Positions 1-18,598 of a stretch of DNA of 64,000 nucleotides are shown here, one piece after another. The first letter of the stretch is position 1. Each line of letters starts with the position of its first letter. The notes under the pieces were generated by a model. The model had not been told where the DNA came from. It searched no databases and was given only the letters and a program-made list of their open reading frames with translations. Origin of the DNA: Planctomycetota bacterium. Its GTDB lineage: Bacteria > Planctomycetota > Planctomycetia > Gemmatales > Gemmataceae. The stretch is from the NCBI GenBank assembly GCA_016872605.1, contig VGZI01000002.1, positions 8,089 through 72,088 on the forward strand. The letters run 5' to 3'. The translations under genes and the position numbers were made by a program.

Positions 1-893
1 TGGAGTTCATGCAATTTCACCCGACCGTCCTCTACGTCGCCGGTTCGAGCCGATTCCTCATCAGCGAAGCCGTGCGTGGCGAAGGGGCGTATCTGCGTGA
101 CAAGCACATGGAGCGCTTCATGCTCGCCGTCGATCCGCGTGCCGAGCTGGCCCCGCGCGACATCGTCGCCCAGGCCATCGTCTGCTGCATGGAACGCACC
201 AAGCACCCCAACGTCTACCTCGACCTGCGCCATCTCGACAAGGCCCTGGTGCGCCGCCGTTTCCCCGGCATCGAGAAGGTGTGCAAGGGCTTCGGCATCG
301 ACATTACCAGCGACCTAATCCCAATCCGTCCTGGCGCGCATTACATGATCGGCGGCGTCACGGTCGACGAGAAGGGCCGTACGACGCTGCCCGGGCTCTG
401 GGCCGCCGGCGAAGTGACCTCGAGCGGTCTGCACGGCGCCAATCGGCTGGCGTCCAACAGCCTGCTCGAGGGCCTGGTCTATGGCGCCGCTTGTGCGCGC
501 GGCGCCAGCGAGGTCGCACTCACTATGCCCGACCACTTCACCGCCTTGCCGCTGGCGAGCCGATTCGAGCCCGAGGACGGCGGCAGTCTCGATGTGGCCG
601 ACATCACCAATTCCTTGCGCAGCATGATGGTCCGCCACATGGGCGTCATCCGCGATCGCGCCGGCCTGATCGAAGCCCAGCACGACGTCGCCTTCTGGCA
701 GCGCTACGCCTTGCCACGCGAGTTCACCAACCGCCCCGGCTGGGAGTTGCAGAATCTGTTAACGATCGCGCGCCTGATGATCGACTCTGCCCTGGAGCGC
801 GAAGAATCCCGCGGCGTCCACTTCCGCAGCGACTTTCCGGCGCGCAACGACACCGCGTGGCAACGGCATATTGCGTGCAGGCCGATGGGGTGA
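1..893 (+). CDS. nadB: L-aspartate oxidase, C-terminal part (5' end lies outside the window)
   Basis: Frame of ORF 9..893 is open back to base 3 (E-F-M-Q-F-H-P-T). Motifs GLWAAGEV, HGANRLASNSLLEGLVYG and EESRGVHFRSDFP are typical of NadB-type flavoproteins. Confidence 0.9.
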   Translation, partial: EFMQFHPTVLYVAGSSRFLISEAVRGEGAYLRDKHMERFMLAVDPRAELAPRDIVAQAIVCCMERTKHPNVYLDLRHLDKALVRRRFPGIEKVCKGFGIDITSDLIPIRPGAHYMIGGVTVDEKGRTTLPGLWAAGEVTSSGLHGANRLASNSLLEGLVYGAACARGASEVALTMPDHFTALPLASRFEPEDGGSLDVADITNSLRSMMVRHMGVIRDRAGLIEAQHDVAFWQRYALPREFTNRPGWELQNLLTIARLMIDSALEREESRGVHFRSDFPARNDTAWQRHIACRPMG

Positions 894-1248: not shown

Positions 1249-2499
1249 CCTACGCTTCCGGCTCGTCGGGTCATTCCTCGACCGACACCCATTCTCGTAA
1301 CGGCGCTGACGGAAGGCGTCGTCGAGAAACTTTTGGTGGTTGAAGGGCAGCCGATCAAACGAGGACAGGTCGTCGCTTGCCTCATTGCAGACGACGCCAG
1401 CCTCGCCTTGCAATCGGCCGAGGCGGATCGTGAGCTGCGCAAAGCGGAAGTCGCGCAAGCCGACGCGGCGCTGACTGTCGCCAGGGCGGTGTTGCCCTCG
1501 CAGCTCGTCGCGGCGCGCTCGCGCCTCAGCTACCTTCAGGAAGCCTTTGAAAGCCGAGCGGAAACCAGCAGAATGGGCGCCTTGCCTCGGCTCGTATTGC
1601 CTCAGTCCAAGAGCGAACTGGATGCGGCCGCCAGTGCTCTTGCCGAGCTTGAGATTCGTCAAGGCAAGGTGGAGGGCGTGCGCGCCTTCGCGGAAGCAGA
1701 AGCCGCTGTCAAATCCGCGGCGGCTCGACTGAAGCAAGCGGAGGCGGCTGTCGCCGTCGCCAAACTTCGATTGGACCGTATCATCGTGAAAGCGCCCGTG
1801 GATGGCCAGGTTATCGCTCTTGTCGCGAAGCCAGGTCAACGGCTCATGGGTCAAACACCGCACGGGCATCCGGAAGCGAGCACGGTCATTACCATGTTCG
1901 ATCCGACGATGATTCAGGTTCGCGCAGACGTTCGATTGGATGACGTTCCGAAAGTGCAAGTGGGACAGAGTGTATCCATCGACACGCCTGTCAAGGCAGG
2001 GGCGCCCCTTGAAGGAGTCGTGCTCCAACTCACGTCGCAAGCCGACATTCAAAAGAACACGCTGCAGGTAAAGGTTTCGGTCAAGGCGCCGCCCACGACG
2101 CTTCGGCCCGACATGCTGGTGCAGGTCACGTTTCTTGCATTGCCCACGCGTGAAATCGGTGACGCCGAACGACGATCGCTACGAATCCTGATACCGAAGC
2201 AGTTGGTGGAGAGCGTGGATGGGACCGCACACGTTTGGGTTGCCGACCTGGTTGGCAAGGTCGCACGACGAAAGTCGATCAAGCTCGGCCGGTCGAGCGG
2301 GGAGCTGATAGAAGTGACGCAAGGCCTGACGCCGGCCGATCGTCTCGTCAGCGAAGGGCGGCAAGGATTGAGCGATGGCCAGCGGATCGCACCAACCCAC
2401 GCCGACGTCGGTGTTGACGCCATACGCCATGATGGCCGCTCCCATCCGAAGCGGTTACCCAATCCCGGCGGGAAACAAGACCAGTCCGGAAACCGTTAG
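1198..2499 (+). CDS. HlyD-family membrane fusion (periplasmic adaptor) protein, apparently missing the N-terminal membrane anchor
   Basis: Lipoyl/beta-barrel motif [22 protein letters not shown], a coiled-coil region, and a position upstream of an ABC ATPase and FtsX permease. The first ~35 codons are encoded by the repeat element and contain no hydrophobic helix. Confidence 0.72.
1209..1264. repeat. Hairpin element with a 22-bp stem and 12-nt loop (GAAGCGTAAGCGA family)
   Basis: GAGCCGGAAGCGTAAGCGACGG (1209-1230) pairs with CCGTCGCCTACGCTTCCGGCTC (1243-1264) with one non-Watson-Crick position. A degraded copy follows the nadB stop at about 903-940. Confidence 0.8.
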
Positions 2500-3222: not shown

Positions 3223-4365
3223 ATGTGGAAGTTCCTTCCCTACGTTGCGAAGAACCTGTGGCGCGACCGGACGCGGACATTCCTGACGGTAAGCGGGGCA
3301 GCCGTCGCGATGTTCGTGTTCACGGTCGTCGGCGCCGTTCAGGAAGGCATGGCCAGTTTGAATCGAGGAACCCAGACGGAGCGCACGTTGATCGTGTTTC
3401 AGGCCAATCGCTTCTGCCCTGGCACGAGTCGTTTGCAGGAAGATTACGCTCGGACCATTGCCAAGCTTCCGGGCGTTCAGGAAGCCGTCCCGATCAAGGT
3501 GTTCATGAACAACTGCCGCGCGAGTCTTGACCTGGTCGTTTTCCACGGTCTGCCGCCCAAGCAGCTGCAAAAGATTCGCGATCTCAAGCTCAGCGCCGGC
3601 GATTGGCCCAGCTTCGAGAAACAACGTGACGCAGCCGTCGTCGGGCAGTCCTTGGCGAACCGACGTCGTCTCTCGGCTGGCCAGCGGTTCTCGATCGGCG
3701 AGGTAACGGTCACGATCGCTGGCGTCTTCACGGCGACCAACGCAGCCGAGGAGAGCTTCGTCTACACTCACCTCGAGTTCTTGCAACGCACCCCCGGCAT
3801 CAGTTCCGTCGGAACGGTCACACAAATCGAAGTCCTTCTCGCCGCCGGGTCTGACCCGATGGCCATGTGCAGGACGATTGACGAAAAGTTCCGAGGCGGT
3901 CCGATTCGAACGGACACGCGGCCCAAAGGGGTCTTTCAATCACGAGCCGTCGGCGATCTCGCGGACTTGATTGGGTTTGCCCAGTACCTGGGCTACGCCT
4001 GCGTCGTTCTGGTTCTGACCTTGGTCGGCACAACGACGCTCATGGCCGTTCAGGATCGTGTCCGCGAGCATGCCATCTTGCAAACGCTGGGCTTCACCTG
4101 GCAGTGCATCTTCGGTCTCGTGATGATCGAAAGCCTGATCGTCAGCCTGACCGGCGGCGCCGTCGGCATCGGCGCTGCGCTTGCAGTTCTTTCTTGGAAT
4201 GGATTGGCAGTCGGCTCCGAAGGTGTGACGATCGCCTTCTCGACGTCGCCGATGCTTGCATTCATTGGGATGACGGCCACTTCGATCGTCGGTCTTGTCG
4301 CGGGCGTCCTGCCTGCATGGACCGCGGCGCGAGCGGAGATCGTCGAATCGCTTCGCAGTTTATGA
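3223..4365 (+). CDS. ABC transporter permease, FtsX/MacB family
   Basis: N-terminal TM helix, a large periplasmic loop and three C-terminal TM helices. Starts 3 nt after the ATPase stop. Confidence 0.85.
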   Translation: MWKFLPYVAKNLWRDRTRTFLTVSGAAVAMFVFTVVGAVQEGMASLNRGTQTERTLIVFQANRFCPGTSRLQEDYARTIAKLPGVQEAVPIKVFMNNCRASLDLVVFHGLPPKQLQKIRDLKLSAGDWPSFEKQRDAAVVGQSLANRRRLSAGQRFSIGEVTVTIAGVFTATNAAEESFVYTHLEFLQRTPGISSVGTVTQIEVLLAAGSDPMAMCRTIDEKFRGGPIRTDTRPKGVFQSRAVGDLADLIGFAQYLGYACVVLVLTLVGTTTLMAVQDRVREHAILQTLGFTWQCIFGLVMIESLIVSLTGGAVGIGAALAVLSWNGLAVGSEGVTIAFSTSPMLAFIGMTATSIVGLVAGVLPAWTAARAEIVESLRSL

Positions 4366-15488: not shown

Positions 15489-16205
15489 ATGATCAAGTTC
15501 ACTAACACATCGCTGACAACGCTAGCGGAGAACCTGGCCCTTGATGAAGCGCTTCTGCTTGACGCGGAAGCGGGAGGGCCGGAGGTGTTGCGCGTTTGGC
15601 ATTGGCCGACGTCGGCGGTCGTTCTCGGCGCCGGCGGCCGAATCGCCGATGATGTCGACGAGCCCGCTTGCGTTGCCGATGGTGTTCCGATCATTCGCCG
15701 TTCGAGCGGCGGCGGCACTGTACTGCTCGGCGCAGGCTGCATGCTCTATAGTCTCGTCCTGCGTTTCGACCGTCATCCGGCTCTGAGCGACCTGACCGCG
15801 TCGTATCGTTTCATACTCGGCCAAATCGCCCAGGCACTCGCGCCGTTGGTCTCGCCGGTTGCGATCGAGGGAACCAGCGATCTGACGCATGCGGGCCGCA
15901 AGTTTTCGGGCAATTCGCAACAGCGCAAGCGTACACACTTGTTGCATCACGGCACGATCTTGCTTGACTTCGACGTGAATGCGATTGCGCGCTACCTGAA
16001 AATGCCGCTGCGCCAGCCGGAGTATCGGCGGCATCGCTCGCACGCGGACTTTCTGACGAACGTGCCGATCTTGGCTAATGTCGTGCAGGAGGTGCTTCGG
16101 CGGGCGTGGGTTGCCGACGAGACGATGATTGACATGCCGATAGAGTTCATCAAGCGGCTTGTGGTCGAGAAGTACTCACGCCAGGAATGGACCGCGCGAA
16201 GGTGA
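15489..16205 (+). CDS. Biotin/lipoate A/B protein ligase family protein (LplA-like)
   Basis: LALDEALL, VLRVWHW and IIRRSSGGGTVL resemble the lipoate-protein ligase catalytic domain. The ATG at 15489 (MIKFTN) is preferred. Confidence 0.72.
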   Translation: MIKFTNTSLTTLAENLALDEALLLDAEAGGPEVLRVWHWPTSAVVLGAGGRIADDVDEPACVADGVPIIRRSSGGGTVLLGAGCMLYSLVLRFDRHPALSDLTASYRFILGQIAQALAPLVSPVAIEGTSDLTHAGRKFSGNSQQRKRTHLLHHGTILLDFDVNAIARYLKMPLRQPEYRRHRSHADFLTNVPILANVVQEVLRRAWVADETMIDMPIEFIKRLVVEKYSRQEWTARR

Positions 16206-16281
16206 TGGCGGAAGGCCACAGATAGGGCATCGGACTCGCGGGCGCTAACCGCAAACAGGACAATTGGTTACGACAATCGCT

Positions 16282-16310
16282 TTGACTTTTCTTCGGTCGC
16301 TGCGTAGGAT
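16282..16310 (+). promoter_or_regulatory. Sigma70-like promoter
   Basis: TTGACT (16282-16287), 17-nt spacer, TAGGAT (16305-16310), immediately upstream of the riboswitch-like element. Confidence 0.55.
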
Positions 16311-16319
16311 TGCAATCAG

Positions 16320-16450
16320 CAGCCTAATCTCGTTCCGCAGGGAACGAGTACGGGGGACCCAAACGGATCGCTTCGCGCGGTCCATGGGGCGCAGGTCGCA
16401 AGACCGGGGCACTTTCAAGCCCTAGCCCGTCAGCTAACCTCGTCGGCAAG
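16320..16450 (+). promoter_or_regulatory. c-di-AMP riboswitch candidate (ydaO/kimA class)
   Basis: CCUAAUC, then hairpin 16329-16348, then GUACGGGGGACCCA (16348-16361). GCAA-capped helix at 16394-16405. GCCCGUCAGCUAACCUCGUCGGC at 16425-16447. These blocks match the conserved ydaO motif as I remember it. Confidence 0.7.
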
Positions 16451-16543
16451 TCCGCGGTTGTACTGCGGGCGGGTTTGAAAGGGCCACCTTTCTTCATTGC
16501 AAGTGCCCCTGTTCTTTCGTCTCCGCGCGCTCGGAGGCAACCC

Positions 16544-16810
16544 ATGACCCACACCACGCGTGTGGCCGTGTTCGCCGTTTTGGCGGTCGCGTCGCTGTTT
16601 GCATCGCATTGGCACGCTACGGAAATCGTTCAGGACGAAACGTCTTTGGCTATGCGGCAATTCAGCAACGACGCAGCCCTTCCAGCCAGGATGCATGACG
16701 CATCGCAAACGCGGCAGTGGTGGCCGCTCGCTTGGCCCGCGCTGGCGCTCGTCGTCGGTGTGGCGATGTTCTGGGACGACTTCGAGCGCTGGTGGACGCG
16801 AGAGACGTAG
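16544..16810 (+). CDS. Small membrane protein (two predicted TM helices)
   Basis: GGAGG lies 7 nt upstream of the ATG at 16544. Hydrophobic segments VAVFAVLAVASLFA and WWPLAWPALALVVGVAMFW. Confidence 0.6.
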   Translation: MTHTTRVAVFAVLAVASLFASHWHATEIVQDETSLAMRQFSNDAALPARMHDASQTRQWWPLAWPALALVVGVAMFWDDFERWWTRET

Positions 16811-16811
16811 T

Positions 16812-16884
16812 CGCTTGCGGCTTCGCGCTCGCGCTGCGGCGCCGGGAATCTCGGCGTTTCAGCGCGAGCGCGAAGTCGCAAGCG
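16812..16884. repeat. Intercistronic hairpin with a 25-bp stem (one mismatch)
   Basis: CGCTTGCGGCTTCGCGCTCGCGCTG pairs with CAGCGCGAGCGCGAAGTCGCAAGCG. Lies between the small membrane protein gene and the SPFH gene. Confidence 0.88.
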
Positions 16885-16903
16885 GCATCGAAGGAGGTCC
16901 GTC

Positions 16904-18052
16904 ATGTCAACCAATGCGATTATCGCCATGGTTGTCGCCATCGTGTTGATTCCGGTGATCGCGTTTCTGGGCTTCGCGTTTATCAAGCCCTACGATGTGC
17001 CCGAGTTCATCGAAGTCGATTCGAGCGAGTCGGCGTTTCTGATTCCGCTCGAAGGCGACACGAGCAACCAGGCGGCGTTTCACTCCGTCAAGTTCCTGGA
17101 GGAAAAAAAGATTGCCACCAAACGCGTGCAGATCACGCACCGTTGGCAGCAGACGGGTTATCTGCCCAGCACTGGCAAATGGGTCGGCACCGTCCGCCTC
17201 GTCAAGGTCGATCGCCGTCCCATCACCCGCGAATGGACCAAGTCGCCCAAGACCGGCACCTCGCCCAAGGACGAAGCGGTCGCCGCCGAGTCAAAGGACA
17301 GCATCAATTTCACCATGGGGTTGAGCTGTACGGCGCACATTCCAGAGGAGTCGGCGTCGGTCTTCCTTTACAGCTATCCATCGCGAAGCCTGGCCGACAT
17401 GATGGACACTGAGGTGCGCGCTCGCATACATCAGGTCATCGCTGAGGAAGCAGGCAAGTATGTGGTCTTCGAACTACCGACGAAGAAGAACGACATCATG
17501 AAGACTGTGCGCGAGGATGTGGTGCCGTTATTCAAGAAGAAGGGCATCGAGATTACGACGCTGGCCATGGTCGGCGGATTGACGTTCGACAACGTCGACA
17601 TACAGCGGTCGATCGATGATGCGGCCCGGGCATCGCAGCTCAAGGTCGCGGCGGAGGCTAAACGCGCCGCTCAAGAGATCGAAAACAAGACGCTCCTGTT
17701 GGCGGCCGACGGCAAGGCAGCGGCGTCGAAACGCGAGGTTCAGGGTCGGATCGAGGTCGAACTCTTGCGCGTCGAAAGCGACGCCAAAATTCGCATTCGC
17801 GAAGCCGAGGGACAAGCCGAGGCGATTCGTAAGGTCGCCGACGCCAAAGCGTATGAAGCGCTGAAAGCGTCCGAGCAGCCGGAGACGTACCTTCGGTTGC
17901 GCATGATAGAGGCAGAGATGGCACGCTGGAAGCAGTGGGATGGCCGTTATCCGCAGTACGTGGTGCAGATGGGCAACGCGCCGTCGGTCTCGGCGGTGCA
18001 CATGCCGCCGTTGCCGCTGGAGGCAATCAAGGCTGCGCGAGTAGAAAAGTAA
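16904..18052 (+). CDS. SPFH/band-7 (stomatin/flotillin-like) domain protein
   Basis: AAGGAGG RBS, N-terminal TM helix, a band-7-like core, then an Ala/Glu/Lys-rich coiled coil (AAEAKRAAQEIE..). Confidence 0.82.
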   Translation: MSTNAIIAMVVAIVLIPVIAFLGFAFIKPYDVPEFIEVDSSESAFLIPLEGDTSNQAAFHSVKFLEEKKIATKRVQITHRWQQTGYLPSTGKWVGTVRLVKVDRRPITREWTKSPKTGTSPKDEAVAAESKDSINFTMGLSCTAHIPEESASVFLYSYPSRSLADMMDTEVRARIHQVIAEEAGKYVVFELPTKKNDIMKTVREDVVPLFKKKGIEITTLAMVGGLTFDNVDIQRSIDDAARASQLKVAAEAKRAAQEIENKTLLLAADGKAAASKREVQGRIEVELLRVESDAKIRIREAEGQAEAIRKVADAKAYEALKASEQPETYLRLRMIEAEMARWKQWDGRYPQYVVQMGNAPSVSAVHMPPLPLEAIKAARVEK

Positions 18053-18060
18053 CCAGCATT

Positions 18061-18203
18061 CGTTTAGGCGAGCGGCAGGCGTTGATGTACCGTAGGCATC
18101 AGGCTCCGCGAGGTGAATTCTCCACGCGGAGCGTGAGGTCTACGGTAGCTGAACTGCGGCCGTTCGCCTTAGCGTTCGCAGAGCGCCCGGCGAACGCTAA
18201 ACG
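18061..18203. repeat. Composite nested palindromic element (CGTTTAGG...GCTAAACG family)
   Basis: Nested pairings TACCGTAG/CTACGGTA, CTCCGCG/CGCGGAG and TTAGCGTTCGC/GCGAACGCTAA, between convergent genes. Confidence 0.6.
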
Positions 18204-18211
18204 AAGAAAGA

Positions 18212-18598
18212 TCATTTGCGTCGCGCCCATGCCTCGGCGGCATCGAGGGCCATGGCGATCGCGGCGGCTTCGGTCTGGGCCTCGGCCGTCACGGGTTGAC
18301 CCACCGCGGGATCGCTCGTCGGCAGGGTGATAGTCACGCGTACGATTTGGGCCGACACGTCTACCTTTTTGTAGCGCAAGACTCGGAGCCGTTCCATGCG
18401 CGACTGGACGACGCCCCAATCGACTGGGCTGGTCGGCGCCGCTGCCGGTTGGGACACGCTTAGCTGTGAAACACCCAGCGACTCCGGGCTCGGCAACACG
18501 AACTTTGAGATCGTCGCGTTATTCATGGGATTCGGCGTCCACATCGGCGCCGGCTGCGATTGTCGCACTGGATTCGATTGCGGATAGTGCTGCGGCAT
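18212..18598 (-). CDS. Hypothetical protein (Pro/Gln/Ser-rich N-terminus)
   Basis: 128-aa ORF. The same frame continues upstream to an ATG at 18763 across one TGA at 18662-18664. Confidence 0.45.
   Translation of the reverse strand: MPQHYPQSNPVRQSQPAPMWTPNPMNNATISKFVLPSPESLGVSQLSVSQPAAAPTSPVDWGVVQSRMERLRVLRYKKVDVSAQIVRVTITLPTSDPAVGQPVTAEAQTEAAAIAMALDAAEAWARRK

Follow-up and report, generated by a model that had tools for sequence, protein, structure and literature searches.

What signal sets the level of a bacterial SPFH assembly, and what is such an assembly for? Bacterial SPFH proteins (HflK/C, QmcA, YqiK/flotillins) are widespread, and their physiological roles are poorly defined. The question is raised by a locus on the planctomycete contig VGZI01000002.1, where a structured leader precedes an open reading frame (ORF) for a small membrane protein and a gene for an SPFH/band 7 protein. 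We analysed a 64,000-nt stretch of this contig, called the window, a word that also marks the leader and the proteins of the studied locus where they are compared with relatives; all coordinates are counted along this stretch. We consider it likely, taking the parts jointly, that an aptamer transcribed from a promoter at 16282-16310 forms the leader of a two-gene operon, that cyclic di-AMP (c-di-AMP) turns the operon off by attenuation, and that the product is an SPFH assembly acting in envelope, turgor or ion homeostasis. c-di-AMP is a messenger that has been linked to the homeostasis of potassium, osmolytes and the cell wall.

The aptamer and its displaced pseudoknot strand

Scanning of the entire window with cmscan and Rfam 15 returned a single match, to the c-di-AMP riboswitch family RF00379, at 16311-16463 on the plus strand. 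This match covers the full model (positions 1-134) and scores 58.2 bits against a gathering score of 38 (E-value 6.8e-11). It bears out the ydaO-type riboswitch proposed in the preliminary description of this DNA, and every leader motif listed there was found at its position when the sequence was re-read. The same holds for the two blocks that had been singled out as the most conserved of the ydaO/kimA class, GUACGGGGGACCCA (16348-16361) and GCCCGUCAGCUAACCUCGUCGGC (16425-16447): their core sequences, ACGGGGGACCCA at 16350-16361 and CCCGUCAGCUAACCUCG at 16426-16442, are intact and are unchanged across 45 leaders.

The helices were placed by combining the Rfam alignment with our own alignments. 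On the plus strand, P1 lies at 16322-24/16445-47, P2, an 8-bp hairpin, at 16329-36/16341-48, P3 at 16350-55/16438-43, P4 at 16360-86, P5 at 16387-89/16426-28, P6, which carries a GCAA loop, at 16394-97/16402-05, and P7, with the loop ACUUUCAA, at 16407-10/16419-22. A covariation count over the 45 leaders, with 500 column shuffles and slid partners as controls, supported the arrangement of P1-P7 as two three-way junctions. Cells of the proposed pairs were indeed paired in 92% of cases, against 81% in the column shuffles and 32-55% with slid partners; changes on both sides were present in 24 of the 45 pairs, and none of the 500 shuffles reached any of these measures. A fold compatible with covariation, which had been suggested as a check on the assignment, was thereby obtained. 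P1, P5 and the greater part of P3 do not vary and are hence uninformative in this count.

The loop of P7 contributes to a further helix. Its segment CUUUCAA (16412-16418) pairs with UUGAAAG at 16475-16481 (plus strand), which forms the 3' strand of a pseudoknot. At least 6 contiguous pairs were present at the homologous site in 54 of 55 unique leaders, through at least 8 different complementary combinations of loop and tail (among them CGUUCAA/UUGAACG, CUUCCAG/UUGGAAG, CUUUCAG/CUGGAAG, CUUCUAA/UUGGAAG, CUUGGUG/CACCGAG and CUUAGUG/CACUGAG). In the 45 leaders this helix (helix 9) was 95.6% paired, with compensatory changes in 4 of its 7 pairs. The crystallised Thermoanaerobacter tengcongensis construct has the same loop-tail complementarity, CUCCUUCG/CGAAGGAG, and the paper mentions a stable pseudoknot (PMC5393176), which indicates that the pseudoknot of the window is the RF00379 family's own. 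The core blocks of that aptamer (PDB 4QLM/4QLN; PMC5393176), CGGGGGACCCA and GAGCCCGUCAGCUAACCUCG, also align with the window. It differs from the window in that the latter has a full P2, a longer P4 and an additional hairpin, and in that the pseudoknot comprises 7 bp here, compared with 8 bp in the crystal construct.

The additional hairpin, H1 (16450-16470, plus strand), was defined by alignments and by covariation (helix 10, with both-side changes in 5 of 8 pairs) and lies between the 3' strand of P1 and the pseudoknot strand. It is restricted, in the alignments, to leaders of the planctomycete group, those of the verrucomicrobial group being devoid of it. Because of this insertion, the 3' tail of the Rfam model is aligned onto H1 and the match ends about 18 nt too early. 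Judging from the alignments, the aptamer extends about 18 nt beyond the Rfam match, through the displaced pseudoknot strand. The expression platform starts later than had been thought, since the pseudoknot at 16475-16481 belongs to the aptamer. As delimited by the Rfam alignment and by covariation in the 45 leaders, the segment 16322-16481 (plus strand) is, on sequence grounds, a bona fide ydaO/kimA-class c-di-AMP riboswitch aptamer (RF00379).

This aptamer stands in an upstream gap that runs from the end of an LplA/B-like ORF at 16205 to the ATG at 16544. The gap had been described as non-coding, highly organised and 340 nt long; its exact length is 338 nt. The near-consensus promoter reported at 16282-16310 is present as well. 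It is of the sigma-70 type (plus strand), with a -35 box TTGACT at 16282-16287, a 17-nt spacer and a -10 box TAGGAT at 16305-16310, amounting to 9 of 12 consensus matches. A consensus scan found it to be the sole sigma-70-like site in 16100-18400, though a single site of this kind is by itself not significant, shuffled sequence yielding 0.7. The boxes TTGAC(T/A) and TAnnAT are kept at a fixed distance from P1 in alignments of about 15 related planctomycete loci. This positional conservation supports a transcription start a few nucleotides 5' of the aptamer.

Pairing with an SPFH gene and a small membrane protein

Is the proximity of this aptamer to an SPFH gene accidental? To the preliminary description, an SPFH gene had seemed an unusual member of the regulon, as had a planctomycete-like host. 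We compared the window with 90 relative loci (labelled L0nn, e.g. L003 or L019), 10 from named genomes and 80 from metagenomes; those at about 45% identity in the SPFH protein constitute the verrucomicrobial group. The genomic loci belong to Gemmataceae, Singulisphaera, Fimbriiglobus, unclassified Planctomycetota and one metagenome-assembled genome (MAG) labelled Alcaligenaceae. In all 10 of them RF00379 matched with 46-65 bits, in the orientation of the SPFH gene and a few hundred nucleotides 5' of it. An nhmmer profile made from the 10 genomic leaders detected the element in 65 of the 90 loci. In 63 loci, 3 of them missed by nhmmer, Rfam detected it at or above the gathering score, 5' of the SPFH ortholog and in the orientation of that gene. 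Overall, a same-strand aptamer precedes the SPFH ortholog in 68 of the 90 loci (5 by nhmmer alone), so that the unusual regulon member is a recurrent one. The upstream sequence is shorter than 540 nt in 16 of the 22 loci without the element. L038-L040, which also lack it, match a second SPFH paralog, and their contigs end before the expected position of the aptamer; in L030, L043 and L077 the element is absent despite at least 970 nt of upstream sequence. As read from these sequences, Planctomycetota and Verrucomicrobiota share the riboswitch-SPFH arrangement as a conserved rule, not as an accident of adjacency. More than 600 proteins are homologous to this SPFH protein; where a source is named, it is a Planctomycetes or Gemmataceae MAG, in keeping with the host that had been suggested.

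Some loci depart from the common layout. In several verrucomicrobial loci about 80-140 nt separate the aptamer from the SPFH start, and no small ORF intervenes. L046 (593-4011), like L044, has one aptamer followed by two tandem SPFH paralogs, in the order of a 480-aa fused-type Band_7 ORF at 822-2264, a small ORF and a lipoprotein-type SPFH gene from 2989; it is solely this second paralog that L038-L040 match. L009 (CAYVRB010000013.1), labelled 'uncultured Alcaligenaceae', has a planctomycete-type leader with H1, a small ORF and an SPFH ortholog of 55% identity; this contig is probably misbinned or mislabelled. RF01687 (Acido-Lenti-1 sRNA, gathering score 37) was matched near the SPFH gene in two loci, at 2241-2285 (plus strand, 41.2 bits) of L026, a planctomycete-group contig, and at 156-201 (minus strand, 39.7 bits) of L041, a verrucomicrobial contig.

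Both ORFs described downstream of the leader were confirmed, at 16544-16810 and 16904-18052 (plus strand). The first encodes an 88-aa small membrane protein, laid out as a transmembrane segment, an LAMRQFSND loop, a second transmembrane segment and FWDDFERWW; the two transmembrane segments, predicted from the sequence, are probable. Orthologs are present in all planctomycete-group loci, with a transmembrane segment and the motifs LAVRQFxND, WWPLxWP and FWDDxERWW. The small ORF had no Pfam match above threshold (best, Trp_oprn_chp at 16.5 bits against 29.6) and no NCBIfam family. In most verrucomicrobial loci the SPFH ORF itself carries an N-terminal extension of about 110 aa, which consists of a transmembrane segment, LALRQxNGG, a second transmembrane segment, a basic linker and a signal-peptide-like transmembrane segment. 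An hhalign comparison of the small ORF with this fused module gave a probability of 97.3% and an E-value of 1.7e-11 over 86 columns. This Rosetta-stone fusion in Verrucomicrobiota indicates that the small membrane protein belongs with its SPFH neighbour in a single functional unit.

The second ORF encodes a 382-aa SPFH/Band_7 protein (Pfam PF01145, 38 bits against a cut-off of 23.6, E-value 2.2e-9), with an N-terminal transmembrane anchor, an SPFH domain and a long C-terminal helix. An AlphaFold2 model (pLDDT, the predicted local distance difference test, 67.7) has helices at 3-26 and about 231-344, with the SPFH strands between them. Foldseek matched it with a probability of 1.00 to prohibitin, erlin, HflK/C, stomatin and flotillin, and QmcA was matched too; the global TM-scores stayed low (0.24-0.30), owing to a different placement of the long helix. 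No sequence match to any PDB chain and no NCBIfam model was found for the SPFH protein. The HflK and HflC equivalog models TIGR01933/TIGR01932 did not hit the window protein, and gave 19-22 bits against 159 with verrucomicrobial orthologs. Orthologs from other verrucomicrobial loci are about 360 aa long and are lipoproteins, marked by an L-x-G-C lipobox; those of planctomycetes begin with MRK and a transmembrane segment. With such lipoprotein signal peptides and membrane anchors, the SPFH domain would lie outside the cytoplasm, like that of HflK/C.

An inverted repeat at 16812-16884 occupies the 93 nt that separate the two genes; its 36-nt arms are 86% complementary, and it has no T tract. An intercistronic hairpin had been reported here as 25 bp long; it is present, with the larger dimensions just given. 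Two more hairpins lie 3' of the SPFH stop codon in 18060-18200, one of the type GTACCGTAGGC...GCCTACGGTAGC, the other at 18169-18200 with 16-nt arms of 88% complementarity, neither followed by a T tract.

The expression platform and its possible readings

How would ligand binding be transmitted to the operon? Directly 3' of the pseudoknot strand, nearly all leaders have a hairpin, stem C, which is the candidate attenuator. In the window it spans 16481-16508 (plus strand) in the alignments, GGGC[C]AC at 16481-87 pairing with GUGCCC at 16503-08. Its strands vary in a compensatory manner, as GGGCUU/AAGCCC in L003, GGGCC/GGCCC in L019 and GGGCAA/UUGCCC in L009, and in verrucomicrobial leaders GGG.GAUC pairs with GAUC.CCC around a covarying inner hairpin. 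Stem C of the window is followed by a U-rich tract, UGUUCUUUCGU (16510-16520, plus strand).

The 3' strand of stem C has other potential partners. AGUGCCCC (16502-16509, plus strand) is perfectly complementary to GGGGCACU (16406-16413), with UGUUCUUUCGU following, and, in the minimum free energy (MFE) folds, to GGGGCGC (16386-92). The long-range GGGGCACU/AGUGCCCC helix, which had been proposed as the platform pairing, is real: about 10 of the 20 planctomycete leaders can form it with 8-9 uninterrupted pairs, and its duplex energy is -18 kcal/mol, against -8.5 kcal/mol for stem C. It is lost in L003 and L019, where stem C is kept by compensation, and was therefore rejected as a family-wide feature. 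From this comparison, it is better read as a ligand-free alternative partner than as a terminator.

Folding predictions are consistent with such an alternative state. The unconstrained MFE of 16318-16520 is -93.7 kcal/mol and disrupts the aptamer: the P7 strands are drawn into a single long helix with the pseudoknot strand and the 5' strand of stem C, and the P5-side GGGGCGC takes GUGCCCC as its partner. The fold in which the aptamer is enforced has -72.4 kcal/mol plus about -4.8 for the pseudoknot, i.e. about -77 kcal/mol. When folds were truncated before the 3' strand of stem C, the 5' strand was sequestered in P7 in the window and in 8 relatives.

Further 3', the folds contain the hairpin CUCCG 16521-16525/CGGAG 16532-16536 (16521-16537, plus strand) over the Shine-Dalgarno sequence (SD) GGAGG at 16533-37. 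This hairpin had been described as sequestering the SD. It is present, but local, seemingly constitutive and not conserved in position: it is shared with L001, and other loci fold different local SD hairpins. The distance from the platform to the start codon ranges from 80 to 315 nt across loci, with inserted palindromes, which makes a decision at the SD unlikely, and SD sequestration was rejected as a conserved switch. Two other candidates were discarded. The platform blocks GGGCCACCU and GGGCGAUCCUCU, examined by eye as mimics of the anti-SD, had poor complementarity to SDs. A TTG-started ORF at 16475-16810 (LKGPP...) was considered as a leader peptide; its start recurs in several loci because the pseudoknot/stem-C RNA UUGAAAGGGCCACCU reads Leu-Lys-Gly-Pro-Pro. 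Long, near-perfect palindromes were also observed between the platform and the small ORF in L003 (about 3560-3630, with a stem of about 26 bp), L002 (about 1990-2060) and L008 (about 1340-1500), which suggests that a leader under riboswitch control can accommodate mobile hairpins.

We infer from these analyses that the element would be an OFF switch acting by attenuation. Binding of c-di-AMP would lock P7 and the pseudoknot; GGGCCAC would then be free to pair with GUGCCC as stem C just 5' of the U-rich tract, and stem C would attenuate transcription. In the absence of ligand, the pseudoknot strand, the 5' strand of stem C and AGUGCCCC would invade the P7 and P5 strands of the aptamer and transcription would continue, so that the operon would be made at low c-di-AMP. 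What it encodes would be an HflK/C-like SPFH assembly outside the cytoplasm, accompanied by a small membrane protein as its dedicated partner, and this assembly would act in envelope, turgor or ion homeostasis. OFF attenuation is favoured because all characterised c-di-AMP riboswitches repress on binding (PMC9960051), because stem C is conserved with compensatory changes and because the distance to the SD is variable. It is also favoured because the ligand-free MFE fold disrupts the aptamer and because the 5' strand of stem C would be sequestered in P7 before its 3' strand is made.

Several observations weigh against this OFF attenuation. Stem C of the window is weak (6 bp and a bulge) and its U tract moderately U-rich, comparable tails being limited to close relatives (e.g. 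ACGUUUUCCUGAUUU in L003); the verrucomicrobial and the high-GC planctomycete leaders have no U tract after stem C, nor do most of the related leaders, and a consensus terminator scan of the leader called no terminator. The segment 16503-09 is paired just 5' of the U tract in both predicted states, so that thermodynamics alone cannot give the termination logic, and the predicted invasion of P7 is limited to 9 of 20 leaders. Moreover, the sequencing runs that contain the window stretch are exclusively lake-water DNA metagenomes. We also considered that the same aptamer and target might have another output, either on translation or RNA stability, or as an ON switch in which the GGGGCACU/AGUGCCCC helix and the U tract would form a ligand-free terminator, prevented by c-di-AMP binding. 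The ON version could draw on the 8-9 perfect pairs of this helix, on its greater stability and on its abutting the U tract; it is at odds with the repression exerted by all characterised members of the class (PMC9960051) and with the loss of the helix in the two loci where stem C was kept. Translational control finds precedents among high-GC members of the class, which work without canonical terminators, the C. glutamicum nlpC riboswitch being translational and S. coelicolor rpfA likewise lacking a terminator (PMC9960051), and the SD is occluded by a hairpin in the window and in several relatives. Yet these hairpins are local, specific to each locus and remote from the platform, and no conserved, ligand-dependent partner was found for them. 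Overall, an output other than OFF attenuation appears possible, though rather unlikely.

The ligand and the extent of the regulated unit can be questioned in the same way. The junction J5/6 (16390-16394) is CGCAG, as opposed to UGAAU in the Rfam consensus, and its first A varies (A/C/U) among the leaders of the clade within the PVC (Planctomycetes-Verrucomicrobia-Chlamydiae) bacteria; in the crystallised T. tengcongensis construct J5/6 is CGAAU (PMC5393176). No hallmark motifs of diadenylate cyclases (DACs; GxRHRxA plus DGA) occur in the six frames of the window and the 90 loci, which cover little DNA. Given the deviating J5/6, the leader might be a specificity variant of the ydaO fold with a ligand other than c-di-AMP, comparable to the change from c-di-GMP-I to c-GAMP or to the ykkC subtypes, a view to which the SPFH gene context, different from the classical transporter and cell-wall regulon, and the extra hairpin before the pseudoknot strand would also lend themselves. 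Against such a change of ligand, which we regard as highly improbable, stand a score far above the gathering threshold, the intact cores, and the fact that the J5/6 position varies freely among leaders of the same gene context, unlike what is seen in a specificity switch. DAC proteins are, in addition, listed for Isosphaera, Rhodopirellula and Planctomicrobium, and a DacD class is specific to Verrucomicrobia (PMC6741144); with DAC enzymes recorded in both, production of c-di-AMP is plausible at the level of the phyla. It is likewise very unlikely, if slightly less so, that the riboswitch controls the small ORF alone and that the SPFH gene is independent, the inverted repeat at 16812-16884 being a terminator or a processing site. 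This would account for a repeat that occupies the whole intergenic gap; it does not fit with the verrucomicrobial loci, where the two proteins are fused or the aptamer directly precedes the SPFH gene without a small ORF, nor with the lack of a T tract and of any promoter-like site between the two genes in the consensus scan.

Relation to known systems and wider meaning

Compared with the B. subtilis ydaO (kimA) riboswitch, the element belongs to the same class (RF00379), with P1-P7, two three-way junctions, the cores, the pseudoknot between P7 loop and 3' tail and the position in a 5' leader; repression on binding is a likeness that we infer. It differs from ydaO in its Planctomycetota host, in its target, an SPFH operon in place of a potassium or amino-acid transporter, in the extra hairpin between P1 and the pseudoknot strand, in its J5/6 and in the apparent absence of a canonical intrinsic terminator. 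The last feature would be shared with the actinobacterial riboswitches of S. coelicolor rpfA and C. glutamicum nlpC, also from high-GC hosts and with CUCC-type pyrimidine-rich segments near the SD (PMC9960051). Those control cell-wall hydrolases, nlpC at the level of translation, whereas the platform described here is far from the SD and at a variable distance from it.

On the protein side, HflK/C-FtsH (PDB 7WI3) and E. coli QmcA-YbbJ (PDB 8Z5G) share with the SPFH protein of the window the membrane anchor, the SPFH domain and the long helix, in agreement with the fold matches, and the SPFH domain of HflK/C is extracytoplasmic, as predicted here. In contrast to HflK/C-FtsH, there is no evident protease partner and the operon is under riboswitch control. 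As in SPFH-NfeD operons (QmcA-YbbJ), a small membrane partner is co-encoded, and it is here sometimes fused; unlike in these operons, its gene precedes that of the SPFH protein, and it does not belong to the NfeD family (no Pfam hit).

The c-di-AMP regulon is described as transporters of potassium, amino acids and osmoprotectants in Firmicutes, and as enzymes of the cell wall in Actinobacteria (PMC9960051 and reviews). Full-text searches returned no paper that treats a c-di-AMP riboswitch together with SPFH or band 7, and matches on flotillin proved to be unrelated, a result that does not prove the absence of an earlier mention. Apparently, then, we are dealing with a known riboswitch class and a phylum-spanning regulon member that has so far gone unreported. 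This would widen the documented regulon beyond transporters and cell-wall enzymes, and into the PVC bacteria. For the family itself, it means that the Rfam model truncates planctomycete members, their pseudoknot strand lying after the inserted hairpin, and that a new set of high-GC leaders without canonical terminators bears on how such c-di-AMP riboswitches signal.

A broader reading, which we put forward tentatively and find doubtful as a whole, is that throughout the PVC bacteria c-di-AMP directly controls the amount of a dedicated SPFH cage outside the cytoplasm and of its obligate small partner with two transmembrane segments. The partner would represent a previously undescribed family, distinct from NfeD and either encoded upstream or fused, the SPFH protein would be an effector arm of turgor, potassium or envelope homeostasis, and the platform would be non-canonical, without a U tract. 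More immediately, the riboswitch would supply an SPFH gene with an unambiguous regulatory input, namely c-di-AMP. As the pairing is conserved in dozens of loci and in two phyla, it leads to the testable prediction that the SPFH assembly and its partner act in turgor or envelope homeostasis; if true, this would provide a first physiological handle on the role of such a bacterial SPFH assembly.

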